Assembly: GCA_012517325.1 (NCBI GenBank)
Contig: JAAYVF010000107.1
Span: 3,032-67,031, forward strand
DNA from: Myxococcales bacterium
Lineage (GTDB): Bacteria; Lernaellota; Lernaellaia; Lernaellales; Lernaellaceae
Length of the DNA stretch: 64,000 bases
Reading direction: 5' to 3'
Below are positions 23,610 through 50,567 of this stretch, piece after piece. The position numbers and the translations under genes were made by a program. Position 1 is the first letter of the stretch. Each line of letters starts with the position of its first letter. The notes beneath the pieces are model-generated. The model did no database searches. It saw only the letters and a program-made list of their open reading frames with translations, and was not told where the DNA came from.

Positions 23610-24055
23610 GGCGGCGATCGTAGCGTCCGGCGAGGGCTTTGAACAGGCCGCGGCCTCGCCCTCCTTCAAGTGTAAGAGCGGCTTAGCAGCCGCGATACAA
23701 ACCCATGCCGTCTTTTCGTGCGCAAGCCGGAATCCACACCGCCGCTCACCAACCCATCACTACCAATGAGCTTTGAAAATTCTCTGATTTACAAGCCTTG
23801 ACTTTGACAACGCATTGTAGTGTTATTTATCCATGTGCTGAGGAATGATCGAATCCTCGGTTGTGAGAAATTCCGACGGTAGTCGAAGGATGGAGTTAAA
23901 TAATGCTCCTGAAACTCCAATTTCTATATACTGTCCCCGAAAATCCGGAAATCCATCGGAAATCCGGAAAGCAAAAAGCGGAGGGAGATAAGTAATGTGT
24001 CCCCGGAATTCGGAATTCCCAATATTTTATTGCCGAAATTGTTATTAATGTTATC

Positions 24056-25366
24056 TTGCTATTTGTAATTCGCGAAGGTCAGGCAAAAGTATTTCTCACT
24101 AAACTTAACCAGACCGGTTCGGTTGCTTGGGAGTATTTTGAAGAGGCGGAATTCAGTTCCGAGGATTTGTTGTTATGTGGTGATGGCCTATATTTCGTTC
24201 GTGAACAAAGTCTATCGCGTCTGACGAAAAATGGCGAATTATCCTGGCAGGACGAATATCCCTATCAATATGGAAACATGCTTTGCGATGAAAATGATCA
24301 GGTTTTGTTGTTGGTCACTACAGCGGGCGCACCTGCGACCGCGATACTTTATCGTTATTCGATCGATGGTGAAAGAGAAACCATCGGCGAATATTATCTT
24401 GGAGAATTTGAGGCGAATCCGGCCATCCTTTATCCACTATCCGAGGCAAATTATTCAATCCATGTCGAAAGTGAATATGAGATGTATGAACAAATATTGA
24501 TAATTAATAAAATAAATGGGGAAGAAACGGGACGAATTGAAATCGAAACATCGTTGGGCGAAATGCTACCTTTTAAAATTGTGCGCTCCATGAATGACGA
24601 TTCGATTATTGTCCTATTACAAGCGGGCTGGGGAAATACCTACCTACAAAGATATAAAACGGACGGAACGCTTCTCTGGGAAGAAAAGCTGGAAAATATT
24701 GCATTTCCGACCTTGAACGTAAGTGAAAACAATGAAATCGTTTTAGTGGCGGCGGAATCAAACGACGAGGAATATTTACAAGGCCTTTATGTTATTAGAA
24801 AAATATTAGTAATTAAAAATGATGAAAACGGAAAAGATATGTCCCAGAATGTAATTATTCCACTTTTTGGTGGCGACCAGTCCGCAATCGGTGAAGCGGA
24901 TTTTATTATATTAGCTGGTGATAAGGTTGCTTTTATTGCTTCTTATTGTGCTGAACCATATTACCAAATATATCGTTCTATTATCTCTCAACGATTCACC
25001 ATGGACGGCAAACAAGAAATGTATGGGATAATGGACACAAAATATTCCTATTTAAGCATGGAAGAAACCTATGTCGACGCCGCGAATAATCAATATGTGT
25101 TGAGCCAAGGGGGACCAACCGGAGGGGAAATCGGTAACGAGGATATTGTCTGCGGTAAGATCAATGAAATCGGCCAGATTCAATGGATATATCATTACGA
25201 CTGTGGCGGTGGTCTGTTGGATCGTCCTTGGGGAATGGAAGTGGACGCTGAAGGCAGCGTCTACCTAGTGGGCGATGTGTGCCATGAGCAACCGGATATT
25301 TTCGACGATGATACAACCGTCGAGACCGACGAAGATAATGGCGACGAACCAGGCTGCGGCTGCTGA
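24056..25366 (+). CDS. AT-rich (foreign-composition) hypothetical protein ending in acidic linker plus GCGC-COOH; start uncertain
   Basis: A 436-aa ORF in a region of roughly 38% GC. The C-terminus is ...DIFDDDTTVETDEDNGDEPGCGC*. The track start is TTG with no SD and no obvious signal peptide, so the N-terminus may be mis-called or the gene degraded. Confidence 0.5.
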   Translation: MLFVIREGQAKVFLTKLNQTGSVAWEYFEEAEFSSEDLLLCGDGLYFVREQSLSRLTKNGELSWQDEYPYQYGNMLCDENDQVLLLVTTAGAPATAILYRYSIDGERETIGEYYLGEFEANPAILYPLSEANYSIHVESEYEMYEQILIINKINGEETGRIEIETSLGEMLPFKIVRSMNDDSIIVLLQAGWGNTYLQRYKTDGTLLWEEKLENIAFPTLNVSENNEIVLVAAESNDEEYLQGLYVIRKILVIKNDENGKDMSQNVIIPLFGGDQSAIGEADFIILAGDKVAFIASYCAEPYYQIYRSIISQRFTMDGKQEMYGIMDTKYSYLSMEETYVDAANNQYVLSQGGPTGGEIGNEDIVCGKINEIGQIQWIYHYDCGGGLLDRPWGMEVDAEGSVYLVGDVCHEQPDIFDDDTTVETDEDNGDEPGCGC

Positions 25367-27147: not shown

Positions 27148-28713
27148 TTAGCAGCCGCACCCGCCGTCGTCGTTGTCGTCGTCACCGCTCGTCGAGCCGG
27201 CGTCGTCGTCATTGTCGTCATTGTCGTCATTGTCGTCATTGTCATCGTTGTCGTCGTTGTCGTCGTCATCGTCGGCGGTATCGTCGTCCGGTGGGGTCGC
27301 GTCGTCGTTGTCGTCGTCATCGGCGGGCGTGGTGTCGTCGTCGGTCGGCTCGGTCAACTCGTCGTCGCCGTAGGGGCCGTCGCCGGGCAGGATGCCGTAG
27401 TAAACTCCCAGCCAGTACCCGATGAGGTAATCCACCCCGTGCGCCGTGTGCGCGGGATCCTCGGGCGTGCTGCAGGATACGTGATACGGGCTGCGTTCCC
27501 ACAGCACCGAATCCCAGCAGCGGTCGTCCACCTCGTGGGCGTCGAGGGTCTGCGGATCGATGTCGAAGCCGGTCAGTTCCTCGATCCAGGGGTATTGCTC
27601 CAGCAGATCGCTGGCCCAGACCGAAAACGGGTCGAGCGGCATTTCGCTGCAGGTGACTTCGCGCTGGTAATTCGGCGCTTCCCACATCACTTCCAGGCTG
27701 TGGCGGATGTCTTCAACCATGGCTTCCAGCTCGCCCGCGTCGCAGGTGCCCAGGCGCAGGCAGGCGGCGTAATAAACCGAGTCGAAAAACGGGTTGTGCC
27801 CGTCGTTCGACCACGTGCGGACGTTGACCTTCCAGATCTGAAACAGGTGCTCCATCCGCTCGCGATCGGGCCACAGCCGGAACATGTTCGGCACGTTGGA
27901 GTAGTTGTTGATGAAGGCGTAGTAATCGCTGTACCGGTTGAAAAAGGCGATGCTCGTCACCCACAGGAGGGTCTTGTTCTTTTCGTATTCCGAGTCGAGC
28001 AGATCCCAGAAATAGGGTTCGTCGATGACGTGCGCCGCCTGGATGAGAATCGAGAGCCGGATGTCGGGCAGGATTTCGGCCGCCGAGTAGACGCCGCCCC
28101 AGGGGTCGACGATTTTCCAGTTGTTGCTTTCCAGGGTGAGGATGACGTCGCGGAAATCCTCGCGGATCGTGTCGCGCATCGTCGCGTCGTCGACGCTGTC
28201 GTAGGCCCAGGTCAGGCCCCAGAACCAGGTGATGTACTTGTCGCGGACGTTCTTGCCGAGCCAGAAATCGCCGGCGTAATCGCCCGTGCCGAGATAGCGG
28301 GCGTCGCTGTCGAGCGATTCGACGTTCCACGGCGCCTCGTCGGGCGCGGCGTAGCGGGCCAGGTAGCCCGGATCGCCGGTGATGTCCTTCAGAATATGCA
28401 TGTAATGGGCGATGCGCAGCACCTCGTCGCGCGCCTCGGTCTCGCCGGTGACCTGGTAGCGGATCGCCTGCGTGACCAGGTAGGTGCCGGTCCAGTCGCC
28501 GCTGTCGCCGCTGCCCCAGGTGCGCAGGATTTCGGTGCGGGTTTCGTCGGTGAACAGCACGTCCGAAACGCCGCCCAGGCCGGTCGAATGCCATTCGCGC
28601 AGGAAGGCGGTGTAATCGGCGGCTTTCTGGTGCAGGTACGGGTCGAAATCGCGGGCCGCCGCCGGAACGGCGAGCAGGGCCAGCAAGAGCAGCAAACAAG
28701 TCGCGAGGCGCAT
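27148..28713 (-). CDS. secreted hypothetical protein with C-terminal poly-Asp/Asn linker ending in GCGC-COOH
   Basis: The start MRLATCLLLLLALLAVPAAA|RDF (rc cat 28711-28713) gives a signal peptide. A ~450-aa Trp-rich domain is followed by ...DDDTTPADDDDNDDATPPDDDTADDDDDNDDNDDNDDNDDNDDNDDDAGSTSGDDDNDDGGCGC*. Confidence 0.65.
   Translation of the reverse strand: MRLATCLLLLLALLAVPAAARDFDPYLHQKAADYTAFLREWHSTGLGGVSDVLFTDETRTEILRTWGSGDSGDWTGTYLVTQAIRYQVTGETEARDEVLRIAHYMHILKDITGDPGYLARYAAPDEAPWNVESLDSDARYLGTGDYAGDFWLGKNVRDKYITWFWGLTWAYDSVDDATMRDTIREDFRDVILTLESNNWKIVDPWGGVYSAAEILPDIRLSILIQAAHVIDEPYFWDLLDSEYEKNKTLLWVTSIAFFNRYSDYYAFINNYSNVPNMFRLWPDRERMEHLFQIWKVNVRTWSNDGHNPFFDSVYYAACLRLGTCDAGELEAMVEDIRHSLEVMWEAPNYQREVTCSEMPLDPFSVWASDLLEQYPWIEELTGFDIDPQTLDAHEVDDRCWDSVLWERSPYHVSCSTPEDPAHTAHGVDYLIGYWLGVYYGILPGDGPYGDDELTEPTDDDTTPADDDDNDDATPPDDDTADDDDDNDDNDDNDDNDDNDDNDDDAGSTSGDDDNDDGGCGC
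27203..27273 (-). repeat. 9-nt tandem coding repeats (gtcattgtc / gtcgttgtc on the plus strand) encoding (DDN)n
   Basis: Direct reading: gtcgtcgtcattgtcgtcattgtcgtcattgtcgtcattgtcatcgttgtcgtcgttgtc... Confidence 0.7.
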
Positions 28714-28744: not shown

Positions 28745-30571
28745 TCAATGCACCCAGCGAGCATACCAGTAGGCGTAACGGAAATCGACGCCGGGCAACA
28801 ACGCGTTGCCGCTGCCGCCGCCGTTCGGGCAATACGGATTCGAGCGCCAGTGGTAATTGCTCACCGGCCGCACCTCCTGCGGGATCGGCTCCTTGCAGAT
28901 CAGGTCGTCGTTGCGGCCTTTGTAGCCCAGCACCGTGACGACGTCGCCGTTTTCCAGCGTGCAGGTGCCGGCGGCGATTTCGTCCTCGTCGCAGTTGATG
29001 ATGCTGGTATCCCAGTAGGGCGGTTCGTGGAAGGCGTAGAGGGTTGCCACGCCACGGTCGACGGCGTCGAGGTCGGGCGCCTGGATCATGGAACCGTACG
29101 CCGAGGCGCCGGATTCGGCGGTCGCGTAAACGAAATCGAACAGCGAATAGGAATATTCCTCCGGCTGGCGTTGGAGCAGAAACGGCCCGTTGAAATACAG
29201 ATGATTGCGCGTGGTATAGCGGATCTTGTCGCGCACGTGCGGATTGTCGAGGTACCGTTGCGCCAGCAAAGCGCCTTCCAGCGCCATGTTCACGGCGCTG
29301 AAATTGGTGATCAGGCCCAGGTTGACGCCGAGCTGCTGGTTCATCGCGATGCGGTCGAGTTCCCGTTCATCGATCAGCGTGTTGTAGAGGTAGTCCTCCA
29401 GCACGGGGTCTTCCGAGCAGTAGGTCAGCGCGGCGACGATGCCCAGGGACATCAGCGAATACATGCCGTCTTTGATCGGCAGCCAGGCGAAGTAATAGCG
29501 GTCGAAGGCGTTTTCATTGAGGTAGCCGTGGTAGGTGGTCCGGCCGTCGGCGTCGAAAATTTCCAGGTCGAAGGCGCCGCCGAGGCTGCCCGGGCCGCCG
29601 GTCCGCTCGACCATCAGTTGCCGGCCGATGTCGCTGGCGTGCTGCTGCAATCGGGTCTTGTCCGCCGCGGCGAAATTCTCGTCGTCGCGGATGACTTCCC
29701 AGAGCGCGCCGAACGCGGCGGCCCAGCCGATGAACTGGTCGCGGCTGCACGAATCCTCCCAGATGTAATTCGGGAAGGCGTGGTCGGCCGAGTTGTCCTC
29801 GCGCCAGGTGCCGTTGTTTTTCTCGGGCGGCAGCGGGTTGCCTTCCTCGTCGAACAGCGGCGTCGTTGCCTGGGTCTGATAAGGGCCGGGGATGTCGGTT
29901 CGGCAGAATCCGCGAGCGATGATGCCCGGCTCGCCGGTGATTTCCACCGCGACGAAAAGCTGCTCGAGGTCGCGCTGGAGAAACTCGCGCGCCCGTTCGA
30001 TATCCTCGGGCGGATAATCCTGATCGCGCAGAACGCCGTACCGGAAGGCGTCGGCCGCGATGCCCACGCCGGCATACAGCCCGGCCACTTTTTGCGTGGC
30101 GGTGATGGCGTCCAGCGGATCCTTGCCGCTGAAGGCCGCGTAGTCCCAGGAATCGGAGTTCTGCAGGAAGTCGGCGATCTGCGCGCGGTCTTCTTCCTGG
30201 ATCAGATCGACGTTGACGTCGGCGTTGACGCCGTTGCCGGCGCAGTTGAACAGCAAGTGCTGGCGGTCGAAGCGGTCGGCCTTGGCTTCGAGTTCGGCGT
30301 CGTAGCCTTCCTCGGCCGGTCCGGGCAATAGCGACGTGCCTTCATAGGGTGGCGTGTTGTCGTCGTTGTCGTTGTCGTCGTTATCATCGTCGTCGTTGTC
30401 ATCATCATCGTCGTCATCATCATCGAGCGGCGAGGAGTCGTCGTCGTCATCGGCAATCCCGGCGTCGTCGTTGTCATCATCATCGCCGTTGTCGCAGGCA
30501 AGAAACGCGCTTACGCCGATGAGCAGAAGGATGAGTAAATAAAAGTAACCACGCCAGTCGGACCGGATCAT
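28745..30571 (-). CDS. lipoprotein with N-terminal poly-Asp/Asn linker; function unknown
   Basis: The start MIRSDWRGYFYLLILLLIGVSAFLAC|DNGDDDDNDD... (rc cat 30569-30571) has a lipobox FLAC. A ~70-aa acidic linker, including DDDDDSSPLDDDDDDDDDNDD...NTPP, is followed by a ~500-aa Trp/Tyr-rich domain. Confidence 0.65.
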   Translation of the reverse strand: MIRSDWRGYFYLLILLLIGVSAFLACDNGDDDDNDDAGIADDDDDSSPLDDDDDDDDDNDDDDNDDNDNDDNTPPYEGTSLLPGPAEEGYDAELEAKADRFDRQHLLFNCAGNGVNADVNVDLIQEEDRAQIADFLQNSDSWDYAAFSGKDPLDAITATQKVAGLYAGVGIAADAFRYGVLRDQDYPPEDIERAREFLQRDLEQLFVAVEITGEPGIIARGFCRTDIPGPYQTQATTPLFDEEGNPLPPEKNNGTWREDNSADHAFPNYIWEDSCSRDQFIGWAAAFGALWEVIRDDENFAAADKTRLQQHASDIGRQLMVERTGGPGSLGGAFDLEIFDADGRTTYHGYLNENAFDRYYFAWLPIKDGMYSLMSLGIVAALTYCSEDPVLEDYLYNTLIDERELDRIAMNQQLGVNLGLITNFSAVNMALEGALLAQRYLDNPHVRDKIRYTTRNHLYFNGPFLLQRQPEEYSYSLFDFVYATAESGASAYGSMIQAPDLDAVDRGVATLYAFHEPPYWDTSIINCDEDEIAAGTCTLENGDVVTVLGYKGRNDDLICKEPIPQEVRPVSNYHWRSNPYCPNGGGSGNALLPGVDFRYAYWYARWVH

Positions 30572-31659: not shown

Positions 31660-33264
31660 ATGGCCATGAAAGATCGTTTTTTCGGATTCCGTTTAATTTG
31701 GGTTCTGAGTGTCGCCGTCTTGCTGCTATTTCCGTTCGGCGGTTGCGAGGATAGCGCAGGCGGCTCCGGCAGTTCGGCCGGCGGCCGATACGATGACGAT
31801 GACGCCGCGGACATGGATGACGACACCTGGGCCGGCGACGACACGGCCGACGACGATGCCGGCAGCGCGGATGACGACGGCGCCGCGGACGACGATACTC
31901 CCGTACCACCGGAAGAAGACATGGAACCCGGGACGTATCCGCAGGTCTGCCAGGGAGCGGTCTATGTGCTGGCCTCCGATTACGATTTCGTCAGCCGGAT
32001 TGACGCCGAGACCTTGGAAATCAAGACCATCACCGTGGGGCGCGAGCCGAAAATTCTGACCGCCACGCCGGATTGTTCCCAGCTTTTAACCCTGAATGCC
32101 AAGGACGACTCGGTCAGCATCATTTCGTTGCCGGGCAACGAGGTGCAAACCCTGGACATTCGCCCCGGCTTGAATTCGCTCGCGGTATCCCCGTCCGGGA
32201 ATTACGCCTTGGCCTATTATTCGTTCACCGATGACGGCCAGGATTATCAGGGATACGGCGAAATTTCGATCGTCGATTTGCGGGACCGGACGGTTCGGTC
32301 GCTGGCCGTGGGATTTCCGCCGGATAGCGTGCTTTACACCAACGACGAACGCGCCCTGCTGGTTTCGACCACCATTCTGGGCCTGGTTCGCCTGACCGAC
32401 GGCCATTTCGAAACCCTGCCGACCGGCCTGGACATCGACGCCGGCCAGCGGATTCGCAAGGCGGCGGTGTCTGCCGATTCGAGCTACGCCTTCATCCTGG
32501 CCGAGGCCGCCACGGACTTGCTGAGCATCGATTTGTCCTCGCTGGAAATCGAGGAATTGGAACTCGGCTGTTATCCGACCGACATGGACGTGGCGGCGGA
32601 GGGCGACATCACCCTGTTGCTCTGCCGCGGCACGGGACAGATTCTGGTGCTCGACAACGGCGACCTGTCGCTGGACGCCTACGAAACCGACGAAGTCGTC
32701 GGCTCGGGGGAATTGACCGCCGACGGCCGACAGGCGGTGCTTTTCACCAATTCCGAGTCGATTGAACGGGTGCATTTGTTTTCGCCGGCGGACGGCAAGT
32801 TGACCACCTACTACACGGTCAAACCGTTGGTCGGCGCGGCGATCGCGCCGGACGACCGCACGGCGGTGCTCTTTCACGAGGGCGGTGACGGCCAGCCGCT
32901 CGACGATTTCGACCAGTATTTCGACGGCCAGGAAGCCATCTCGATCTTCAATCTGAAAAACGGCCTGATCAATCCGGTGGAAACGGCGGTCCGCGCGACG
33001 ACGGTCTCGTTCGGCAGCGACGGCCATTACGCGGTAGTGCCGCAGCCGAATCGGCAAAAATTGCTGTTGCTCGATTTGCAACGGGGATTGGTTGACGTGC
33101 TGGCCACGCCGAGTCTGCCGCTCGACGCGGGCCTGATCGATGATCTGGCCCTGGTCTATGTGCTGCAGGATCACCCGCTGGGCCGGATCAGCTTTTTCGA
33201 CACCCAAACCCTGGCGGTACGGACGGTGACCGGTTTTCTGCTCAACGGCCAGATCGGCGAATAA
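31660..33264 (+). CDS. lipoprotein with acidic linker and repeated beta-propeller-like units
   Basis: GAAGGGAGG lies upstream of the ATG. The protein opens MAMKDRFFGFRLIWVLSVAVLLLFPFGGC|EDS and has a DDDDAADMDDD...DDDTPVPPEE linker. Repeated V(L/I)xxS(P/A)DG / LxVS-like strand units suggest a propeller. Confidence 0.55.
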   Translation: MAMKDRFFGFRLIWVLSVAVLLLFPFGGCEDSAGGSGSSAGGRYDDDDAADMDDDTWAGDDTADDDAGSADDDGAADDDTPVPPEEDMEPGTYPQVCQGAVYVLASDYDFVSRIDAETLEIKTITVGREPKILTATPDCSQLLTLNAKDDSVSIISLPGNEVQTLDIRPGLNSLAVSPSGNYALAYYSFTDDGQDYQGYGEISIVDLRDRTVRSLAVGFPPDSVLYTNDERALLVSTTILGLVRLTDGHFETLPTGLDIDAGQRIRKAAVSADSSYAFILAEAATDLLSIDLSSLEIEELELGCYPTDMDVAAEGDITLLLCRGTGQILVLDNGDLSLDAYETDEVVGSGELTADGRQAVLFTNSESIERVHLFSPADGKLTTYYTVKPLVGAAIAPDDRTAVLFHEGGDGQPLDDFDQYFDGQEAISIFNLKNGLINPVETAVRATTVSFGSDGHYAVVPQPNRQKLLLLDLQRGLVDVLATPSLPLDAGLIDDLALVYVLQDHPLGRISFFDTQTLAVRTVTGFLLNGQIGE

Positions 33265-33275
33265 AGGAGGTTGCC

Positions 33276-34736
33276 ATGAAAAGCGCTAGGATCTACGGCT
33301 GGCTGCTGGCCCTGGCAGCCCTGTTTTTCATCACCGGTTGCGATCAACTTGCCGATTGGTTCGGCGACGATGACGACGACAACGACGACGACAAGGCGCC
33401 GTTCCGCTATCTGTCGGATTTCGACCTCGGCGCGCGGTTGGGCGCGGTCGATCCCTATGATGGTTCGTTGGACCTCATCGATCCGCTGACGCTCGACCGA
33501 TATTCCATACCGACCTCGCCGGGTTTCAGCGCGCTGGCGTTGACTCCCGCCGGCGACCTGGTGGCGATGCTCGACGGCGAGGCGAACCTGGTGCGGATCG
33601 TCGATCCCGTCGCCGGCCGGGTGGAGGGTGAAATCGCCATCGGCGAGGGCGTGAACGCGCTGCGCGTTTCGCCGGCCGGCGATTACCTGCTCGGTTTTTA
33701 CGATCCGAGCGCGGGCGAGGTCGATTTCGGCGACAGCGGGGTGATCAACTACTACGAATTGGACGTGATCGATCTGGTGGCGTTGACCGCTCGGCCGATC
33801 CTCATCGATTTTTCCCCGTCGCAAGTCGTGTTCGCGCCGAGCGGCCGGCAGTGCCTGTTGGGTTCGGACCATCGCCTGGTCTGGCTCGATCTGGAATCCG
33901 GGGCGAAGGTCACGTATCCGCTTACCCTCGATCCGACCGAGTCGCGCGAACCGCGCGATATCGCCATCAGCCCCGACGGTTCCACGGCGCTGGTCCTGGT
34001 AAACGGCACCGACGATATTTTCGTCCTCGATCTCGTCAATCCGACCATCAACATTTTGAATCTGTCCGGGCAAGCCGAGTCCGTCACCTTCTTGCCCGAT
34101 AGCCGCGTGGCGCTGTTGCCGGTGCCCGACACCGGCCGGCTCGGCATCATCGACCTGGACGCCGCGATGCCCGCCGAAATCAGTCTGGGCGAAACGGCCT
34201 CGCGGTTGCGGCTCAACCCGGATGGAACTCAGGTCGTCCTCTATCGCGAGGGCGGCGATCAACTGATTTTTTACGATCCCGCGATGGAAGAAGTGTCGGC
34301 TTTGCCCCTGAACGTGCTCATCGAATCCGAGGAAGGCCGCCCGTCGGTCGCTTATTCACCGGATGGCCGGCGGATTCTGGTCGTCGGTCAATACGGTTCG
34401 GGACCGTCGGGCAAGCTGGACATGGATCTGGTTGATCTGAAAAAGAGCATCGCTTTTCCGATCGGTTTGGATGCGAGCTGGATCGACTATGCCTTTACGC
34501 CCGACAGCGCCCGCGTTGGTGTGCTGCTCGGCGAACGAAATAAATTCATCCGCTTGGATCTGAACTCGCTTCAGCCCGTCTGGTGGGAAATCGCCGCCGC
34601 CGCTCGCGAATTGCACTACCTGTCCGAATTGGGGATTTTTGCCGTTCAGCACCACGATCGACACGGCAAAATCACCTTCATCGGCGACCAGGGAAGCGAT
34701 TTGTATAAAATAAAACGGGGATTTTTCGACGACTGA
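33276..34736 (+). CDS. lipoprotein, tandem paralog of 31660..33264 (beta-propeller-like)
   Basis: AAGGAGG lies upstream. It opens MKSARIYGWLLALAALFFITGC|DQLADWFGDDDDDNDDDK, followed by repeats such as ISPDGSTALVLVNGTDDIFVLDL. Confidence 0.55.
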   Translation: MKSARIYGWLLALAALFFITGCDQLADWFGDDDDDNDDDKAPFRYLSDFDLGARLGAVDPYDGSLDLIDPLTLDRYSIPTSPGFSALALTPAGDLVAMLDGEANLVRIVDPVAGRVEGEIAIGEGVNALRVSPAGDYLLGFYDPSAGEVDFGDSGVINYYELDVIDLVALTARPILIDFSPSQVVFAPSGRQCLLGSDHRLVWLDLESGAKVTYPLTLDPTESREPRDIAISPDGSTALVLVNGTDDIFVLDLVNPTINILNLSGQAESVTFLPDSRVALLPVPDTGRLGIIDLDAAMPAEISLGETASRLRLNPDGTQVVLYREGGDQLIFYDPAMEEVSALPLNVLIESEEGRPSVAYSPDGRRILVVGQYGSGPSGKLDMDLVDLKKSIAFPIGLDASWIDYAFTPDSARVGVLLGERNKFIRLDLNSLQPVWWEIAAAARELHYLSELGIFAVQHHDRHGKITFIGDQGSDLYKIKRGFFDD

Positions 34737-34861: not shown

Positions 34862-36496
34862 ATGCGCCGTTTGTTGTTCATCCTGTTGCCGATTTTGTTG
34901 CTCGTCCTTTCGCTCGCCGCCTGCGACAACGATGATGATGATAATGACGATTCCACCGTCGTGGCAGATGACGATACCGGCGTCGACGATGATGACGACG
35001 ATGACGATGATGACGACGATGATGACGACGATGACGACGATGACGACAACGACGATAATGACGACAACGACGACAACGACGATAACGATGACAACGATGA
35101 CAACGACGACGTTTCGCCCGAGTGTCCCGACGCGGACGAGGACGGATATACCGACGAAAATTGCGGCGGGCTCGACTGCAACGACGCCGATCCGGCGATC
35201 AATCCTGACGCCTACGACATCTGCGGCGACAACATCGACAACAACTGCGACGACATCGTCGACAACCCGGACGATCCCGTCGTCGAATTGCCGGAGTTCA
35301 TCCTCGGCATCAGTTCGGGCGGCAGCTTCACCACGTACCTGCCCGGCTTGGGAATGACCTGGGTGCGCATCACCATTTCCTGGAAGTGGGTCCAGGCGGA
35401 AGTCACCGATCCCGACCTGACCATGGCCGACATCGAGGCGAATCCCGGCCTCATCGACGATTTCATCGCCGCGATCGACTGGACCTCGATCGACAACTAT
35501 GTGCGTGGCCTGCAAGCCGCCGGGCTCGACCCGATCCCGCTGGTCGGCCACGGCTACAGCAATACGCTGCCGGCTATCGAAGGCGAACTGGCGACGCCCG
35601 ACCGCCTGGGCACCGAGCATTATCTGGCGCTGCAATACCGCTGGGTGCGCGCCCTGGTCGAGCGCTACGACGGCGACGGTTACCTCGACGCCGACAACAT
35701 CGTCGTCAAGATCTGGCAGACCGAAAACGAGCTCAACCAGGCCATGCTGACCGCAGTCTGGGGCTGGCGCGATCCGCAGTGGCTCGACGCGCTGACCTCG
35801 GCCTGGGCCGATTGGGATTTCTGCACGACGCTCCTGTCCACGCTGTACGACGCGGTGCACGACGCCGACCCGGAGGCGATCACCGTCCAGAATCTGCACA
35901 CCGACGTGCCGCCCGAAATTTCGCACTTGTTGTTCCAGCCGTCGTGGACCGAGGCGGCCACGCAATGGCGCGATTACATGGATCTCGTCGGCTTCGACGC
36001 TTATCCGAATTATTACCTGGCCGAGCCGGTGATGGGCGATCAGATCGGCGCGCGCGTCACGCAGCTCGACGAGGCCGCGTGCGGCAAGCCGGTCATCGCG
36101 ATGGAAATCGGCTACCCATCCGGCCCGGAGGAACTGGGCTTCACCTGGGACAACCAGGCGCAGTTCATCGACGACGCGTTCCATTCGGCTTACGAAGCCG
36201 GGGCCGTGGGCTATCTGCATTTCGGGTTGAACAGCGACGACACCCACAGCGTGGAAATCACGCCCGAGGACATCGCCAACCTGGAACTGGTCAGCGGGCT
36301 TTATCTGAATGAATCGTGGCTGCAGCTCATGCTCTGGGCGGCCGGCAACCTCGATTACATCAACAATCACTTCATCGACGTGTTGCAGTCGGTCGAGGAA
36401 TATTGGGGCGTGATCTACAACGTCGGCCCGGTCTACAAGCCGGGTTATACGACGCTGCAGAATATCGCGACCGAGGTTTACGGACCGAAGGAATGA
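34862..36496 (+). CDS. lipoprotein: poly-Asp/Asn linker, Cys-rich MopE-like putative metal-binding motif, and TIM-barrel glycoside hydrolase-like domain (GH5-like)
   Basis: It opens MRRLLFILLPILLLVLSLAAC|DNDDDDND..., then CPDADEDGYTDENCGGLDCNDADPAINPDAYDICGDNIDNNCD, then a domain with TENELNQ (NEx acid/base-like) and AMEIGYP (nucleophile-like Glu). Confidence 0.55.
   Translation: MRRLLFILLPILLLVLSLAACDNDDDDNDDSTVVADDDTGVDDDDDDDDDDDDDDDDDDDDDNDDNDDNDDNDDNDDNDDNDDVSPECPDADEDGYTDENCGGLDCNDADPAINPDAYDICGDNIDNNCDDIVDNPDDPVVELPEFILGISSGGSFTTYLPGLGMTWVRITISWKWVQAEVTDPDLTMADIEANPGLIDDFIAAIDWTSIDNYVRGLQAAGLDPIPLVGHGYSNTLPAIEGELATPDRLGTEHYLALQYRWVRALVERYDGDGYLDADNIVVKIWQTENELNQAMLTAVWGWRDPQWLDALTSAWADWDFCTTLLSTLYDAVHDADPEAITVQNLHTDVPPEISHLLFQPSWTEAATQWRDYMDLVGFDAYPNYYLAEPVMGDQIGARVTQLDEAACGKPVIAMEIGYPSGPEELGFTWDNQAQFIDDAFHSAYEAGAVGYLHFGLNSDDTHSVEITPEDIANLELVSGLYLNESWLQLMLWAAGNLDYINNHFIDVLQSVEEYWGVIYNVGPVYKPGYTTLQNIATEVYGPKE
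34984..35110 (+). repeat. poly-GAY tract followed by 9-nt (gacgacaac) tandem coding repeats encoding poly-D then (DDN)n
   Basis: Direct reading of 34981-35110. Confidence 0.7.
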
Positions 36497-36651: not shown

Positions 36652-38223
36652 CTACTTCGCGACCCCAAACCGCAAATACTGCACCCAGCCGGTAATCGTC
36701 ACGTCCACCGCGCCGTCGGCGGTGTCGCCGCTCGCCAGCGGGTCGCCGTTCTGGTCGTACAGTCCCCAATCGCCGGTCGCGCCGGAAGGCAGGGGCACGC
36801 TGACCGGAAATTCGTGTTCGAGCATCGTCTGGTCGTGCCAGAGGCCGAGTGTCCACGTGCCGTCGTCGGCGGCGAAGGCAAGGGCGTGCAAATCGCCGTC
36901 CCACGCCAGCGCCGCGCCCAGGTCGCCGGCGAAGCGCGACTCGCCCAGCATCTGGTCTGCGCCGACCAGCGCGTTGTAGGCCGGTTTGGCGGCGATGGTG
37001 CCGCCCGGCCACGAATACAAACCGAAGGTGTCCTCGGTCGGCGGCGTCGCGCCGCCTTCGCCGTCCCAGAAGGTGTACCAGTAGAAATATTCGACCTCGG
37101 CCTGCAGGGCGAGCAGCAGGCCGCGCGCCGCGAAGGCGCCCTGCCGTTCCTCGCCGATGAAGTAATCCGGCCAGCCCATCTCGGTGAGGTAGATCGGTTT
37201 GTCGCCGCAGCCGATATCCGCCAGCCGTTCCCGCGCCGCCGCGATCATCCCCGGCATATTGGGGTAGACGAAAAAGCCGAGGTCGAAGGTGAATTCCGGC
37301 CCCGGCTGCTGGAAGAGCGTGTAGGGGTGGATCGCCATCGCGTCGATGAAGTCGCAAAGATCGGGATGCGCCTCGGCGACCTGCGACAGGAAATTCCAGA
37401 CGCCGTTCTGAATCAGGTCCGGGATGTTGTCGAAATCCACGGTGGACAGGCCGCCGAAAAGGACGGTCGCGCTCGGATCGTTTTCATGGATCGCGGTATA
37501 GGCCGCCTTGAGCAAGGTGCCGTAGTGGTCCGGATTGGGCGCCGGCGACCAGAACCGCGTCGTGTTTTCCTCGTTCCAGATTTCGTACACGTCGATGCGA
37601 TCGGCGAAGTGCGCCGCGACCGAGCCGTTGAAATCCGCGTAGATTTCCGGATCGATGTCGTCCGGCGATCCGTTGGGCATGGCCCAGCCGACTCCGTAGG
37701 CCATCATCGCGTCCACCTGGATGCCGGCATCCAGGTTCAGATCGACCATCGTGTCGTAGCCGTCGAAGTACCATTCGTCGTCGTTGGGTTCCAGCGTGCT
37801 CCAATGAAAATCGGTGCGCATCATGCCGACGCCGGCGTTGCCGAGTTGCCCGATTTCGAACTCGCGCAATTCATCGTAGCCGGCGCCGTTGCTCATGTGG
37901 CTGGAAATGGCGAGGATTTCGCCGAGTGTTTTGCCGGACGGAGCAAATCCCGCGTATGGATCGGTCGGCGTGGTGTCGTTGTCGTCGTTATCGTCATTGT
38001 CGTCGTTGTCGTCGTTGTCGTCATTGTCATCGTTGTCGTCATTGTCATCGTTATCGTCGTTGTCGTCGTCGTCGACTGGCGAAGAGTCATCATTATTGTC
38101 ATCGTCGAGCGGCGAGGAATCGTTGTCATCGTCATCGCCGTTGTCGCAAGCGGAGAAACCGAAAAGCGCCGCCAGGCAGAGAAAAAGAAGAACCGCGTGA
38201 GGAATGGAAATCAACCGCTTCAT
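36652..38223 (-). CDS. lipoprotein with poly-Asp/Asn linker and GH5-like TIM-barrel glycoside hydrolase domain
   Basis: It opens MKRLISIPHAVLLFLCLAALFGFSAC|DNGDDDDND..., with a (DDN)n linker, EIWNEEN (NEP-like acid/base) and YLTEMGWP (nucleophile Glu). Confidence 0.6.
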   Translation of the reverse strand: MKRLISIPHAVLLFLCLAALFGFSACDNGDDDDNDSSPLDDDNNDDSSPVDDDDNDDNDDNDDNDDNDDNDDNDDNDDNDDNDTTPTDPYAGFAPSGKTLGEILAISSHMSNGAGYDELREFEIGQLGNAGVGMMRTDFHWSTLEPNDDEWYFDGYDTMVDLNLDAGIQVDAMMAYGVGWAMPNGSPDDIDPEIYADFNGSVAAHFADRIDVYEIWNEENTTRFWSPAPNPDHYGTLLKAAYTAIHENDPSATVLFGGLSTVDFDNIPDLIQNGVWNFLSQVAEAHPDLCDFIDAMAIHPYTLFQQPGPEFTFDLGFFVYPNMPGMIAAARERLADIGCGDKPIYLTEMGWPDYFIGEERQGAFAARGLLLALQAEVEYFYWYTFWDGEGGATPPTEDTFGLYSWPGGTIAAKPAYNALVGADQMLGESRFAGDLGAALAWDGDLHALAFAADDGTWTLGLWHDQTMLEHEFPVSVPLPSGATGDWGLYDQNGDPLASGDTADGAVDVTITGWVQYLRFGVAK

Positions 38224-42538: not shown

Positions 42539-42841
42539 CCGGTGTTGATTAACGAAAAAGTGATGAGTTTTAGAGTGGTGTATTACCCATCTAATCCAGC
42601 CATTCTGTAGATGATTTTGCAATTTGTGGAACCGCTCGCCTCACGAACAACCTACTGATTAACAGAAAAGTAAAAACGATTTTCGAAATTTTTTTTCCGA
42701 ATTTCGGATGTTGTCTTCCGCTCCCAAAGCCTAAGTACTTGAAATCACAATATCGCGCATTTGGCATGTCCAATGCTTCATGTCTCATTATCGCGCATTA
42801 ATTATTGTGATGACAATAATCGTCAGCGAAAAGGATGGTCA

Positions 42842-44215
42842 ATGAAAATCAATAAGCACCTCCTGGCTAATATCAGGATATTCAAGTGGGCACGCACAAA
42901 GGGCTTTCTTCTGTCATTTCTTGGCATCGTGATCATTGCCGTTTTCTATACATTCGGGACGGCAAAATGGGCTTGGAAAAGTGTATTCATCGGTCGACCG
43001 GCCTTTATCCCGGTGCAAATTTCCAACCAGGTAAACAGGCTGGAATTGAATGCCACGATTGGCGGCATTCCGTTTTTTCTGGCTCGTTCGCCTGCCGCGG
43101 CAGCTTATTGGTGGAAATATCATTCAATCGGCAATGGCAAGGACATTGCGGACTGCGATGTGAACGGCGGTTCGGCACTTGAATTGATCGATACGGAATA
43201 TCCCGATTCGGATAACGCGAATGGCGTTTGCCGGAGACATATTCAAGTTCGTTGTTCGACCGATAAAAACGGGGCTGACCAAACTTTAATTATCGAAAAC
43301 AAAGACATCTCTTTTAGTTATATTCCCAAGGGAGTCAAACCGGAAGACATCTCATCGGCGTCGAATATCCCCGAGGAATGCCAAACGGTTGCGTGGCCTC
43401 AATACCGGAACCTGTTTTTATTGACCAATGTTGAAGCGAAGCCGGATAAACAGGGTTCGATCGTAGTAGTCCCACAAGCAATTTATTGGCGTAAAGTCGC
43501 ATGGTCCAGTTATCAGGAAGAGCCGATTAAGCAGAGCGCCGCCGTCAGTCAGACGACAACAGTCGAAGCGAAACAGTGCGTTCCTCACTTCTTTTTCAAT
43601 GCGACGAATTCTCCCGAGTGCCAATTTGTCCGCGAGATACTGGTCAAACCATCCGTAGTGAATGAAAGAGACCCACAGTATTCCCTAACAGAGAAAGTGA
43701 AAAAGGGTGCCACTTATCTGGTCCCCATCATTTTGTATTGTGTTCTCTGGTTGGATACATTTTTATTTTGCTTTGTTCTTGGCGCCGGATTGATGTATCT
43801 GATTGTCAATAAGAAACCCAACAATCCGACAGTGAACAATGGCGATGCTGAATTGGGGCATGTCAACGAAGAACGAAGGGAATTGCGTCAATTCCTGGAG
43901 TGGCTGGAAGTTATCGGCCCGGCAATCGGTTTTTGGTTGACCGTCGGCTCGTTATTGTTGGCTTTCGAACCGGGGACTTTCGCCGATCAAGACAAAATCG
44001 CTTTTGCCTCGGGAATTTCCATGGCCATGACGGCAACCTTTGCCGGTCTGCTCATGCGCATCCTGGCCTTCACTGGCGATCGTCTGGTGTTACAAATCCT
44101 TTATCTTTACCACGGCGCCGACAAGGAAGGTTTTTTCCCGAAACCGAAAAAATTGGTGATGGAACCCAGTGGTGACACGCCCAAGGCCGGAGAGGAAAAA
44201 GGAACCGGACAATGA
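42842..44215 (+). CDS. ExbB/TolQ/MotA-family-like proton-channel protein with a ~300-aa N-terminal extra-cytoplasmic extension
   Basis: AAGGA lies upstream. The N-terminus is basic with TM1 at ~22-42. A ~300-aa Cys-containing hydrophilic domain follows. Three C-terminal TMs then match the TolQ/ExbB core: the last two, ...IGPAIGFWLTVGSLLLAF...ISMAMTATFAGLLMRILAF, resemble it. The gene lies in a low-GC island. Confidence 0.5.
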   Translation: MKINKHLLANIRIFKWARTKGFLLSFLGIVIIAVFYTFGTAKWAWKSVFIGRPAFIPVQISNQVNRLELNATIGGIPFFLARSPAAAAYWWKYHSIGNGKDIADCDVNGGSALELIDTEYPDSDNANGVCRRHIQVRCSTDKNGADQTLIIENKDISFSYIPKGVKPEDISSASNIPEECQTVAWPQYRNLFLLTNVEAKPDKQGSIVVVPQAIYWRKVAWSSYQEEPIKQSAAVSQTTTVEAKQCVPHFFFNATNSPECQFVREILVKPSVVNERDPQYSLTEKVKKGATYLVPIILYCVLWLDTFLFCFVLGAGLMYLIVNKKPNNPTVNNGDAELGHVNEERRELRQFLEWLEVIGPAIGFWLTVGSLLLAFEPGTFADQDKIAFASGISMAMTATFAGLLMRILAFTGDRLVLQILYLYHGADKEGFFPKPKKLVMEPSGDTPKAGEEKGTGQ

Positions 44216-44715
44216 TGCAAAGGGTTAATTCGCGAGATGATTTGTTTTTATCGGCTCTGGATCTCTACACTCTTTTATCATTGATGTTCATCGGTGTGGC
44301 TTACCTGACGACGTATGGTGGCATGGCGGGAAGGGATCTCGAACTGCCTACCGCAGCCGGCGATTCCACGCAACCGTCGCCGATGGATATGCCGGTTGTG
44401 CGATGGGTGACTACCGGTTTGGAAAATGGCAAATGCACCGTGAAATTCAATCCGCTTGGCAAGTTGGCCGGATTGATCCCAGCCGCGACTATAGAAGTAC
44501 CTTGTCGGCCTGCTGCTTTTCTGGGAGGGGAACGAGGCCCCGATCCGACGCTTGCTTTAGCGGCGCAAAGATGGCGCGAACTCAACGCGGGTAACGACCG
44601 CGTGCCGCGAGTGGCTATCGCTTGTGAACGGGTGGATATCGAATCCTGCGCGCGATTGCAATGGGTATTCGGCGAGGCTGGTTTCTTAACCTTTGCTGCG
44701 GTCGCCGGCAATTAG
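44212..44715 (+). CDS. ExbD/TolR-like protein
   Basis: 167 aa with a single TM (LDLYTLLSLMFIGVAYLTTYGG) followed by a periplasmic domain with ExbD-like spacing (DLELPTAAG...; VPRVAIACERVDIESCARLQWVFGEAGF). The start overlaps the upstream stop as ATGA. Confidence 0.45.
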   Translation: MMQRVNSRDDLFLSALDLYTLLSLMFIGVAYLTTYGGMAGRDLELPTAAGDSTQPSPMDMPVVRWVTTGLENGKCTVKFNPLGKLAGLIPAATIEVPCRPAAFLGGERGPDPTLALAAQRWRELNAGNDRVPRVAIACERVDIESCARLQWVFGEAGFLTFAAVAGN

Positions 44716-44731
44716 TGATGGAGTGTCGATA

Positions 44732-46384
44732 ATGAATGTCCTGACCCAACCGAATCGTTTTCGCGCGCTCTTGCGCCTCTGGCGGCGCGATCCCGCAAAC
44801 CCCGTTGCGCAAAAATTTTTTCGGGAATTCACGGCATTCTGGCAACCGCTAGCCATTAGAGTTCTTACCGGATTTTCGCAGTGTCTCACCGAGCCTATTC
44901 CTCCGCTAAAGCAACCATTGGTCAGCAATGGAGCGATGCATTGGCTGATCGGTTGTGTTTTACGAGAATTGGCGAACCGGACGATTCTGAATAGTGCCTT
45001 CGATCCGGCATCGGAGATGATCCGCGTTCAAAGCAAGATCGTTGAAGAACTGATTGCCAAACTTCACGATGATAATGTTTCGAATGTAAAAATAAAATTG
45101 CGGAATGAGTGTTTGAAACATTATCTTCGTGAAATCGTCAAATATTCGGCCGGGCAAGGGATCCCAGTTTTTAACTGGATATTGCGAGATCCCAAGTTTC
45201 TTAACGAAAAATGCCCCTGGGGTGATTGTCAACGACAAAAAGATTTACCCGGCGATCATTTGCGTCTTGGCCTTGACGATCTGGCAACTCATTTCCGGCA
45301 GGGTTGGCGATGGGCCAAAGAGATTCCCTATGATCCCATAGCCGAGGTGTATTTGCCCAAACGACCGAGCCTGACGATAGCCACGATTCCCATGTTGACC
45401 AATTTACCAGCCAGTAGCGGAGCTGTTGCGATGATTGTTGTGGTTGCAGCGAACCTCATGATTCCTTCTATTCAAGAAGAGATGTATTCCGGCGGGCAAA
45501 GCGGTGCGAACTATTTCGACGCCGAACGACATGAGCAAGTTATACCCTTACCGATCGATCCGGACGGATTGACCATGGCAATTCCGAAAGAATCAGAGAA
45601 TGAGGATGTTTTTATTATGAAAGAAAATGCGGCGGAAAAGGTGGAGCAAGCCGCAAAAAGGTGGTCGGCGGAAAATGCCTCTGGTTCCCATCCTGATTCA
45701 TTGCTCACGCAAGGGCCGAAAGACAACATGTCCAATTCATCTGGAGGGATGCATATGGATTCGCAAAGGCCTTCTTTTGGCAACCCCACCACCGTCGGTG
45801 CCGGTAGCGGAGGCGGCGGTTTGGATGGATCGCCGAACGGGGCGGCCCATGCGGTATCCACGATTGGCGTGGGTGGGGGCGGCGGTGGCAGCCTGAAAAC
45901 CGGCGGCGGTGGTAGTGGAAAGACCACGACCACCATCGGCGCAATGGGCGGAACAGGTGGCGGTATGGGAGGGTCGATTTCTTCCGGCGCTGGGGGAAAC
46001 GGCGGCGGGAAGAAACCGACAACGACGGTTGGCGCGGCGGGAACCGGAACGGGAACGGGTCAGGCCGGTTACTATACCCCGGTGACGACCAACAGGCGGG
46101 AGATCGAAGCGATACCGGGGGTGGCGCGATTGGCGCGAACGATCGCCCACTACCGAAATCAGATCCTCGCCCGGAGTTCCGAAGTGCCGGATAAATGCCA
46201 AGGCTTGGGAGTCAAAATCGAAAATGGCGTGCTGATCGCCAAGGGATACACGGTCAACGCCGGCGGAGATCACGCCACGCTCTCGTTTGGTATGCGGGCG
46301 GGGCAAGATCGTTCCGCGGTTGTCCGTCAGGCTTACAACAACGTTTCCGCCGTGCTCGAAGATTGTTTGAGCAAGTTGAAATGA
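44732..46384 (+). CDS. TonB/TolA-like-architecture protein: cytoplasmic N-domain, central TM, long Gly/Thr/Ser-rich linker, C-terminal globular domain
   Basis: The start is MNVLTQPNRF. A hydrophobic segment AVAMIVVVAANLMIPSI lies at ~aa 245-262. A ~150-aa low-complexity stretch (GGGGSLKTGGGGSGKTTTTIGAMGGTGGG...) is followed by a ~100-aa C-terminal domain. No sequence-level family match. Confidence 0.4.
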   Translation: MNVLTQPNRFRALLRLWRRDPANPVAQKFFREFTAFWQPLAIRVLTGFSQCLTEPIPPLKQPLVSNGAMHWLIGCVLRELANRTILNSAFDPASEMIRVQSKIVEELIAKLHDDNVSNVKIKLRNECLKHYLREIVKYSAGQGIPVFNWILRDPKFLNEKCPWGDCQRQKDLPGDHLRLGLDDLATHFRQGWRWAKEIPYDPIAEVYLPKRPSLTIATIPMLTNLPASSGAVAMIVVVAANLMIPSIQEEMYSGGQSGANYFDAERHEQVIPLPIDPDGLTMAIPKESENEDVFIMKENAAEKVEQAAKRWSAENASGSHPDSLLTQGPKDNMSNSSGGMHMDSQRPSFGNPTTVGAGSGGGGLDGSPNGAAHAVSTIGVGGGGGGSLKTGGGGSGKTTTTIGAMGGTGGGMGGSISSGAGGNGGGKKPTTTVGAAGTGTGTGQAGYYTPVTTNRREIEAIPGVARLARTIAHYRNQILARSSEVPDKCQGLGVKIENGVLIAKGYTVNAGGDHATLSFGMRAGQDRSAVVRQAYNNVSAVLEDCLSKLK

Positions 46385-48174: not shown

Positions 48175-48983
48175 ACGCCGCGCTGAAATGCCTGCTCCGC
48201 CTGGTGTTATTGTTCTGGCTGACACCCCTGCTCATGGGAATGGGTAGCGATCCTCTTGGCGAACCAGAGGCGACTGCGGCGATAACCGAGCCGCGAGGAG
48301 TTGAAGGAGTCGCCAAGAAACCGGTCGAGGAATGGATCGAGATCAAATCGGCAGGCGAAACGCGATGGGTGAAATTCGTTCCGGGCAATGAAGCGACCCG
48401 TCCCAATCGGGCGACGCGCCGTTTGAATCTGTTATCGGCTCGGCGAATGAATTGGCCGGAAGCCGTGGCGACTCCGACGGTTTCCCCCGCGGCGAGAATG
48501 CGCTACTTCTTCGAGGAAGACTGCCGGGCTTGGCTCGCCTCACTGACCGTGACCGATCCTACGCGCCTGCACGGCTTGTATGTGTTGATCCTCTTCCAGA
48601 CCCAGCGCATCAATGATATGTACGATTCCGTTTATGCCGATTATCGCCGAACCATGATGCCGGTCGGATTGCCGACTCCCGAGGCGGTCTATCCGGCCGA
48701 GACCTTGGCCACGCTGGTCGGCGCGTATCTGATGGCCGCGGATATTTCGGTGCGCGCCGGCTGGAAATTGGATCCGTTGCGCAAACTCGAAAAGAAGATT
48801 GCCGCTAGCGGGCTCAGCGATCCGATGGTATTGCGGCTGCCCTTTGGCGCTTACAATCCGCCTTATGCCGAATTGTTTCAGCCGTTTTCAATGACGATCG
48901 AAAAACGCTTGGATCCTCCGCCAGCGCCGGAAAACAGGACGGCAAAACAAGTTGTGGGAACGACAGACAAGGCGCCTGAATAA
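48171..48983 (+). CDS. secreted hypothetical protein (signal peptide), last gene of the module
   Basis: The start overlaps the upstream stop as ATGA. The signal peptide is MNAALKCLLRLVLLFWLTPLLMGMGS. 270 aa. Confidence 0.5.
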   Translation: MNAALKCLLRLVLLFWLTPLLMGMGSDPLGEPEATAAITEPRGVEGVAKKPVEEWIEIKSAGETRWVKFVPGNEATRPNRATRRLNLLSARRMNWPEAVATPTVSPAARMRYFFEEDCRAWLASLTVTDPTRLHGLYVLILFQTQRINDMYDSVYADYRRTMMPVGLPTPEAVYPAETLATLVGAYLMAADISVRAGWKLDPLRKLEKKIAASGLSDPMVLRLPFGAYNPPYAELFQPFSMTIEKRLDPPPAPENRTAKQVVGTTDKAPE

Positions 48984-50420: not shown

Positions 50421-50564
50421 CCGGGTGTTGAAAAATACCCGGCGTGCGATCCATGGATGGATCGCCATTTTCGGTAACTTCCGAAGTTGCCGAAAATGAA
50501 GCGAAAAAAACCACGCTTTTTGTTGAGCGCGGTTGAAAAGGCCAGGACGGCCTTTTTCAACAGC
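50418..50564. repeat. ~145-nt structured intergenic element, copy 2 of 2
   Basis: It is ~95% identical to 38614..38762, with a few substitutions and a 2-nt indel in the A-run. It begins at the stop codon of the upstream gene and lies between convergent genes. Confidence 0.6.
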
Positions 50565-50567
50565 TTG

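Follow-up and report, generated by a model that had tools for sequence, protein, structure and literature searches.

Size-variable lipoproteins encoded by simple sequence repeat (SSR) contingency loci, such as the Vlp proteins of Mycoplasma, carry long and nearly perfect DNA repeats that vary within strains. Disordered tracts dominated by Asp, which bind cations or mineral, are found in aspein, Asprich and the calsequestrin tail; these are eukaryotic proteins resident in the matrix or the endoplasmic reticulum (ER). In the E. coli lipoproteins RcsF, Pal and NlpD a disordered linker matters by its length and disorder and not by its sequence (El Rayes et al., 10.1101/2021.01.05.425367). Disordered linkers are needed for Lol sorting in E. 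coli, and Asp at position +2 is a Lol-avoidance signal that retains lipoproteins in the inner membrane. The lipoprotein export signal (LES) of Bacteroidota is a short cluster of acidic residues that directly follows the Cys, either SDDDD or K-(D/E)2 (Lauber et al. 2016, PMC5080379). It is borne by surface-exposed and often glycan-degrading lipoproteins (PMC5080379; Valguarnera et al. 2018, PMC6222051). Three parts make up the MYXO-CTERM tag, which MrtX cleaves: a GCGC-type motif that contains an essential Cys, a transmembrane (TM) helix and an Arg cluster (10.1101/2023.06.07.544157; PMC11980579). Lipidation of its Cys is itself a prediction (PMC11980579). Here we describe runs of Asp and Asn in exported proteins encoded by a 64,000-nucleotide stretch of bacterial DNA (the window; contig JAAYVF010000107.1 of assembly GCA_012517325.1, positions 3,032 to 67,031), and their relationship to these systems.

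The runs are probably the local dialect of a lineage-wide poly-Asp tether, which joins a terminal Cys motif to a globular, mostly glycoside hydrolase (GH)-like domain. This explanation draws on the observed position, disorder, composition, lineage distribution and fast turnover of the tracts, and on terminal modules that nearly exclude each other. The window contains ten Asp/Asn (D/N) runs of 7 to 42 residues, found by a six-frame scan (Table 1). An earlier sequence-only reading of the window had reported such runs, and the scan bears out their places. Every run is in the Asp/Asn frame of a long open reading frame (ORF), and those ORFs have the high G+C content at third codon positions (GC3) typical of the window's real genes; the window as a whole has 61% G+C. 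Asp/Asn tracts occur in 9 of the 16 exported proteins and in none of the 28 others in the window gene list (Fisher p = 1.6e-5), where gene calls and signal-peptide classes follow simple in-house rules. The spacers comprise 20-75 residues, nearly all of them Asp or Asn, and the net charge of the linkers is -23 to -46 each. The window is part of the ENA metagenome contig k127_68437 (102.7 kb), a short-read assembly, so exact copy numbers in the runs are only as reliable as that assembly.

The runs had been interpreted as tethers between a membrane-anchor signal and an enzyme-like domain. The segments do occupy that place and are disordered in AlphaFold2 models. In the 34862 protein (genes are named by their first coordinate) residues ~21-135 are disordered, with a predicted local distance difference test (pLDDT) score of 41-51, and the barrel that follows scores 93-99. 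Foldseek places this barrel closest to PslG, GH53 galactanases, GH1 and GH42, and the domain of the 36652 protein has a weak Pfam match to GH42. The tract at the N-terminus is 46-66 residues long in 28745, 34862, 36652 and 49110, which is similar to the 69 residues of the C-terminal tract in the window. Pfam and NCBIfam searches return nothing for the linkers or tails themselves; weak matches such as EbpS are low-complexity noise. A side feature of the 34862 protein is the MopE-like segment at 35111-35287 (CPDADEDGYTDENCGGLDCNDADP...CGDNIDNNCD), which is confined to the closer orthologues.

A lipobox rule like PROSITE PS51257 is satisfied by 28745, 33276, 34862, 36652 and 49110, and also by 54585 and 3357. 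The strict form of the rule fails for 31660 (FGGC) and 61679, and the n-region of the 49110 signal peptide has no Lys or Arg. The runs were said to follow the lipidated Cys directly. This holds for a D/N block of 9-10 residues in 28745, 34862 and 36652; the long runs are set off from the Cys by stretches of S, T, P, A, G and V, and the 49110 run begins 17 residues on. The shorter D/N run ascribed to 31660 is actually an Asp-rich, DDDxx-like sequence. Three unrelated lipoproteins share the mature start CDNGDDDDND or CDNDDDDNDD. Asp or Glu occupies +2 in most window lipoproteins. The E. coli-type Lol-avoidance signal combines Asp at +2 with D, E or Q at +3; of the five lipoproteins with Asp+2, three have N at +3, 33276 has Q and 54585 has D. 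None of the lipoprotein maturation enzymes Lgt, LspA and Lnt is encoded within the window; Lnt (LNT_N and CN_hydrolase) is encoded on the contig of the relative P0117.

The second type of module is found at C-termini. The 27148 protein is Sec-exported and ends ...DDDNDDGGCGC. The sequence-only reading gave it a C-terminal run, which is indeed near the C-terminus and is not terminal, since GGCGC and then the stop codon come after it. Its domain is predicted to be an (alpha/alpha)6-like toroid resembling GH9, GH76 and epimerase folds; the AlphaFold2 model gives the toroid pLDDT >93 and the tail beside it 43-56. In the 27148 family 53 of 90 members have YGDDD, an Asp-rich tail and a terminal CGC (22), CCG (11), GCG (5) or close variant. 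These 53 tails are 40-107 residues long (median 64) and consist of 52% D, 5% N, 2.5% E and 0.7% K+R. They stay at the same architectural position down to ~41% identity.

In this family the lipobox and the Cys tail are nearly mutually exclusive: two members have both, 24 the lipobox only, 51 the tail only and 13 neither (n = 90; Fisher p = 1.7e-10). The lipobox members P0195-P0199, P0202, P0205 and P0207 have an Asp linker directly after the Cys instead of the tail. P0161, alone in the family, carries a Cys motif, a TM helix and an RGRRR tag at the tail position. The unrelated 5781 family shows the same arrangement. An exhaustive phmmer search with its domain gave 61 representatives, of which 46 combine a signal-peptidase-I signal, this domain, an Asp tail and, at the very end, GCGC, CGC or CCG; all four lipobox members are without the tail. 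The 5781 protein of the window ends ...DDDDDDNDSGGCGC, with the GGCGC codons and stop within 5781-5798(-). A Kelch-like protein of a relative ends ...DDDDDDDDNGCGCG before a TGA stop (L082:16267-16284).

The product of ORF 24056-25366 ends ...DEDNGDEPGCGC, with GCGC and the stop at 25352-25366(+). This ORF has lower GC3 and may be 5'-truncated or foreign. The region around it (23700-25366) includes, upstream of the ORF, an AT-rich stretch with CCGGAAAT and CGGAATT repeats at 23937-24018. Readthrough or selenocysteine insertion after GCGC was considered and rejected, as the stops are TAA, TAG and TGA and no in-frame continuation is seen. There is no room for an extension that codes for a helix in two of the three cases, where the convergent end of glnA follows 27148 and a terminator-like hairpin follows 5781. 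The GCGC tails have no Arg cluster and no NCBIfam match at E <= 1, TIGR03901 included.

The tracts are a habit of the lineage. MutS2 encoded in the window (10651-13035, +) is 65% identical to that of Candidatus Lernaella stagnicola and 59-66% identical to a metagenome set; further matches are <= ~51%, with Candidatus Alcyoniella australis at 41% and Firmicutes at ~38%. The organism is therefore a member of the Lernaellota (FEN-1099), notwithstanding its NCBI label 'Myxococcales bacterium'. Lernaellota are described as saccharolytic, and a glyoxylate bypass is reported for Ca. Lernaella stagnicola (Lernaellota genome paper); malate synthase and isocitrate lyase are encoded in the window. Unrelated exported neighbours on contigs of four relatives, including Ca. 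Lernaella stagnicola, carry the same modules. A GH31 lipoprotein starts LAC-DDDDDDSSVDDDVVDDDIADDD..., another lipoprotein SGC-GDDDDDNDTAPSDDDVDDDADDD..., and a third, with a weak AhpC-TSA match on the adjacent gene call, SSC-GDDDDDSSSS...DDDDADDDADDD... The earlier suggestion of an unusual proteome-wide design is thus upheld, as the design recurs within the window and relatives share it across the lineage.

The linkers evolve fast between species. The 92 relatives of the 34862 protein include a close clade (53-68% identity) with Asp-rich linkers after the lipobox Cys, which are mostly DDDxx pentads where x is T, S, A, P, V, I or L. The D/N dialect is restricted to the window protein and P0003 among these relatives. 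Distant orthologues (35-51% identity) mostly have non-acidic linkers of 8-15 residues, for example CTPTCPPDFRPVE; the few that are named bear the source labels Myxococcales, Myxococcaceae and Ca. Schekmanbacteria. Absence from orthologues in close relatives had been put forward as evidence against a function, and close orthologues do carry Asp-rich linkers. Linkers and tails differ by 3-20 residues between orthologue pairs whose domains are 80-95% identical. For example, the domains of P0005 and P0117 are 94.5% identical, and the linkers differ by seven residues and several rearrangements; non-acidic linkers of pairs as close as this are unchanged in length. Of the cluster pairs only this one differs in the linker, and P0115/P0116 and P0002/P0118 differ in the start-codon call alone. 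In the 27148 family, where pairs with domains 80-86% identical have tails that differ by 3-20 residues, the dialect switches between P0121 (DDDTV type) and P0122 (D/N type). It is this change of length and dialect between such similar domains that marks the linkers as fast evolving.

Variation between strains is less clear-cut. The Logan contig L085 (ERR14964779), from a 97.3%-identical strain, has both short runs at the same length as the window. It diverges at window position 34949, inside the 34862 linker, where CDNDDDDND is followed by PGSSPGQAQ instead of DSTVVADDD, and it ends 27 nt later. The divergent 27-mer is not found elsewhere in the window. The divergence could be a replacement of the linker or a contig-end artefact. 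Two exact-pattern scans of metagenome contigs for the flanks of the 34862 linker found no strain variants. A profile scan of genome contigs with the trimmed family alignment was uninformative on close relatives, the best among the matches listed being 48% identical. The JGI contig L084 (99% identical) breaks off ~130 nt before it reaches the 28745 run. The Logan contig L086 (ERR12510685) is a rearranged relative, ~92% identical. Compared with window 50005-51865 it lacks the acyltransferase-like gene 50568-51662 between the flanking genes. An IS110-family transposase adjoins the C-terminal fragment of the DUF4185 lipoprotein gene in the same contig.

At the DNA level the runs are old or codon-scrambled amino-acid repeats and not fresh microsatellites. 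They had been described as near-perfect 9-nt tandem arrays, a description that does not hold: Tandem Repeats Finder (TRF) gives 75-81% matches for the period-9 arrays. Their self-identity at period 9 is 0.70-0.89, and perfect 9-periodicity extends over 39 nt at most (27202-27273), with 17-27 nt in the other long arrays. Codon choice in the runs is that of the background of window genes (GAT 32% vs 31%, AAT 29% vs 24%). In a recoding control the peptide was kept fixed and synonymous codons were redrawn from background usage. For each array the observed period-9 identity lies among the simulated values (P = 0.11-0.91), so there is no DNA-level repeat signal beyond that of the peptide. The 21 Asp codons of the D21 tract never have more than two identical codons in succession (P ~0.004-0.015). 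In a pooled test of all runs of D>=4 identical adjacent Asp codons are not avoided (0.545 vs 0.50 expected), and D21 alone is significantly scrambled. The best DNA repeat in the window is the 21-nt unit at 3694-3814, and its copies still differ by 1-3 nt. Gene conversion among five linkers was considered and rejected, since shared amino acids and codon bias explain their similarity in DNA alignments.

These features bear on the idea that the runs are hypermutable loci, slipped-strand arrays kept for length variation between strains or within populations, with evasion of phages or predators or the tuning of reach as the benefit. The tandem periodicity is visible to TRF, lengths vary widely among orthologues (including pairs with 80-95% identical domains), and the contig of the 97.3%-identical strain departs from the window within the 34862 linker. 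We nevertheless regard this explanation as improbable. The repeats are imperfect, their periodicity is no greater than after random synonymous recoding, and D21 is the opposite of a pure microsatellite. Measured against true contingency loci, the arrays, with synonymous sites at background composition and scrambled, make poor substrates for strand slippage, and not the classic ones that had been suggested. The two short runs are invariant in length at 97.3% strain identity, and all repeat units are multiples of 3 nt, which precludes on/off phase switching. A functionless by-product, in which GAC-rich tracts expand by slippage at insertion-tolerant domain boundaries, would account for the rapid turnover, the lack of sequence conservation and the background codon usage. 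It is more improbable still, because the tracts occur in the Asp frame without exception, are confined to exported proteins, keep the same architectural position to ~41% identity and are tightly constrained in composition (K+R 0.7%). The 27148 family also couples the tract to a conserved terminal Cys motif that is exclusive with the lipobox. As for an assembly artefact, with low-complexity runs mis-assembled or chimeric, the assembly is from short reads and a related Logan contig stops where the long run begins. We give this almost no credence, as no run on either strand interrupts its reading frame, the same architecture recurs in dozens of independent assemblies (contigs of 1-1.5 Mb among them), and proteins identical to 28745 and 49110 are on record under an NCBI metagenome-assembled genome (MAG) and in ENA. 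Three of the window proteins with the longest runs had no match by exact look-up in a protein collection.

The remaining rivals accept a function and place it elsewhere. The acidic residues after the Cys (C-D-N-[G/D]-D-D-D-D) might be primarily a sorting signal that acts like LES or Asp+2, with the long tract secondary. The acidic start shared by three unrelated lipoproteins and the D or E at +2 in most window lipoproteins fit this, as do the precedents of LES, a short acidic cluster after the Cys (PMC5080379), and of Asp+2 in E. coli. It leaves unexplained the tracts of 40-100 residues and the identical tracts before a C-terminal GCGC. Furthermore, the host is not a member of the Bacteroidota, the polar or basic residue that precedes the acidic cluster of LES is missing, and the two precedents predict opposite locations, which makes a primary sorting role rather unlikely. 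Alternatively, binding of cations (Ca2+, Mg2+, Fe2+), with bridging to lipopolysaccharide (LPS), capsule or mineral, or buffering, might be the selected trait instead of spacing. Asp makes up 52% of the tracts, Glu, Lys and Arg are nearly absent, and each linker has a net charge of -23 to -46. Ca2+ binding is known for the poly-Asp proteins of biomineralisation, and a putative metal-binding MopE-like motif follows the 34862 linker. Judged by composition, binding of Ca2+ or Mg2+ by the tracts is plausible. That it is the selected trait seems unlikely, somewhat more so than a primary sorting role, given that the sequence is not conserved, dilution by Asn is tolerated, no EF-hand-, RTX- or TSP3-like pattern is seen and the models are disordered. 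The tether model could accommodate both as additions, a part in sorting for the first acidic residues and binding of cations by the tract.

Under the tether model the Cys motif would be that of the lipobox in proteins tethered at the N-terminus and a bare GCGC/CCG in those tethered at the C-terminus, and both would be anchoring points. For the lipobox this is established biology; for GCGC it is by analogy to MYXO-CTERM. The GCGC tail is a putative anchor because it is exclusive with the lipobox and because the tripartite tag replaces it in one orthologue, in addition to the MYXO-CTERM analogy. The tract would be an extended polyelectrolyte tether. At ~0.35 nm per residue, ~60-70 residues would have a contour of up to ~20-25 nm and would keep the enzyme off the membrane surface. 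Selection would act on length class and charge and not on sequence, so that the tract could grow, shrink or change dialect by small duplications and deletions. The shift from DDDxx to NDD would be one such change of dialect, with Asp to Asn requiring one G-to-A change. Synonymous sites would then drift to background codon usage.

Several observations weigh against the tether model. The ~20:1 excess of Asp over Glu is not accounted for by a generic spacer role; this bias suggests chemistry beyond spacing, for example cation binding or helix avoidance. The E. coli Asp+2 rule predicts the inner membrane and the Bacteroidota rule surface export, which are opposite locations. Many members of the 5781 family (P0347, P0350, P0356, P0366) begin the mature chain with poly-Asp (AFAQDDDDDD...), and tracts directly after a signal-peptidase I site mean that Asp tracts occur also at free N-termini. 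The (xDDDTTP)n tail of 3357-3830 is a free C-terminus without a terminal Cys. Two GH5 lipoproteins of the window get by with short acidic N-termini alone.

A more specific idea about the C-terminal module is doubtful, though possible. By analogy, poly-Asp followed by a GCGC/CCG-COOH tail may be a C-terminal anchoring signal of Lernaellota without a TM helix, a 'pre-cleaved' counterpart of MYXO-CTERM. The terminal Cys would be modified after Sec export, with a lipid or by covalent linkage to an envelope polymer, and the module would be interchangeable with the lipobox. Poly-Asp would be the common tether and possibly a recognition element for the modifying enzyme. If the tail is an anchor, it would represent Cys-based C-terminal attachment without a tripartite tag or an intramembrane protease, and it would bear on which enzyme modifies the MYXO-CTERM Cys.

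The poly-Asp habit serves as a natural experiment in the requirements of a tether, which are charge, length and disorder and not sequence. It also provides a simple signature in the sequence by which the exported and anchored proteins of an uncultured, saccharolytic phylum could be predicted. For annotation, low-complexity Asp tracts break short-read assemblies.

The coordinates of the runs and modules are collected in Table 1. Other features of the window include the paralogous GH5 lipoproteins 54585-56705(+) (CDDDYEPQD) and 61679-63802(-) (CAEDDYTLDD). The signal-peptide proteins 56654-58057(+) and 60336-61727(-) are alike, share an LPAFD motif and flank a membrane-protein gene (58133-60037). 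A five-gene cluster occupies 42761-48983(+). Its first product is a weak MotA/ExbB-like membrane protein, that of 44693-46384 has long Gly-rich low-complexity segments, and three products have no Pfam match.

Table 1. Coordinates of D/N runs and of N- and C-terminal modules in the window
Feature	Coordinates	Strand	Basis or remark
D/N run	27202-27273	-	six-frame scan
D/N run	27301-27321	-	six-frame scan
D/N run	30356-30424	-	six-frame scan
D/N run	30464-30484	-	six-frame scan
D/N run, D5ND3	33366-33392	+	six-frame scan
D/N run	34925-34951	+	six-frame scan
D/N run, 42 residues, D21 then (NDD)7	34985-35110	+	six-frame scan
D/N run, 33 residues, (NDD)n	37975-38073	-	six-frame scan
D/N run	38086-38106	-	six-frame scan
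D/N run, 36 residues	49227-49334	+	six-frame scan
34862-36496: signal peptide and lipobox LAAC; Cys21 codon 34922-34924	34862-34924	+	translation MRRLLFILLPILLLVLSLAAC; helix modelled at residues 2-19
34862: acidic linker, residues 22-83 (DNDDDDNDD, STVVADDDTGV, D21(NDD)7), net charge ~-46	34925-35110	+	pLDDT 41-47; TRF period 9, 79% matches
34862: Cys-rich MopE-like (PF11617-type) segment joining linker to catalytic domain	35111-35287	+	PF11617 matches in homologues; low model confidence
34862: (beta/alpha)8 clan GH-A-like glycoside hydrolase domain	35288-36496	+	pLDDT 93-99; Foldseek; invariant ENELN motif
36652-38223 lipoprotein: signal peptide, lipobox FSAC (Cys26), 66-residue linker	37948-38223	-	lipobox rule; six-frame scan
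28745-30571 lipoprotein: signal peptide, lipobox FLAC (Cys26), 46-residue D/N-rich linker	30356-30571	-	lipobox rule; six-frame scan
49110-50420 DUF4185 lipoprotein: signal peptide, lipobox STGC (Cys23), linker	49110-49358	+	lipobox rule; Pfam
31660-33264 beta-propeller-like protein: signal peptide (FGGC), Asp-rich DDDxx-like linker	31660-31929	+	fails strict lipobox rule
33276-34736: signal peptide, lipobox ITGC, short linker with D5ND3	33276-33404	+	lipobox rule; same length in 97.3%-identical strain
27148-28713 C-terminal module: 69-residue Asp/Asn linker (27166-27372), GGCGC (27151-27165), TAA	27148-27372	-	kept in ~53/90 family members
5781-6401 (Sec-exported) C-terminal module: Asp-rich linker, GGCGC, TAG, then terminator-like hairpin	5781-5870	-	46/61 family representatives alike
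ORF 24056-25366 C-terminus: acidic stretch, EPGCGC, stop	25280-25366	+	membership uncertain; no signal peptide at called start
3357-3830 small lipoprotein (157 residues): 21-nt repeat, 5.8 copies, 87% matches, encoding (xDDDTTP)n	3694-3814	+	TRF

Disordered lipoprotein linkers are already known; the lineage habit of near-pure Asp linkers is not in the literature searched. That search, in which few subscription journals were covered, found no description of poly-Asp lipoprotein linkers or of TM-less GCGC tails, and the Lernaellota genome paper mentions neither poly-Asp linkers nor GCGC tails. The Vlp-type loci have in common with the window genes the in-frame tandem repeats in surface lipoproteins, where copy number sets protein length. 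They differ in that synonymous sites are scrambled here and the variation is seen between species only. The biomineralisation proteins share the long, disordered, Asp-dominated tracts, although their role is the binding of cations or mineral rather than tethering.

The GCGC tails resemble MYXO-CTERM in having GCGC at the C-terminal end of Sec-exported proteins with a disordered region before it. However, the ORFs described here stop right after the motif and encode neither a TM helix nor an Arg cluster, the helix being present in P0161 only. The Haft data set restricts the MYXO-CTERM tag to two orders, and this lineage is outside both (10.1101/2023.06.07.544157). As in LES, an acidic cluster follows the +1 Cys (CDNGDDDD, CDNDDDD, CDDDYE). 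LES consists of 4-5 residues at +2 to +6 after a polar or basic residue, whereas here Asp is at +2, in place of S, Q or K, and the tracts can reach 60 residues or more. LES is also defined in Bacteroidota, and the host here belongs to Lernaellota. The linkers of El Rayes et al. are similar in placing more than 22 disordered residues between the Cys and the globular domain, and their dependence on length and disorder matches the turnover and fixed position of the tracts in the window. The E. coli linkers are not polyanionic, whereas those described here are ~50-80% Asp/Asn with a charge of up to -46, are found throughout the lineage and are mirrored at C-termini.

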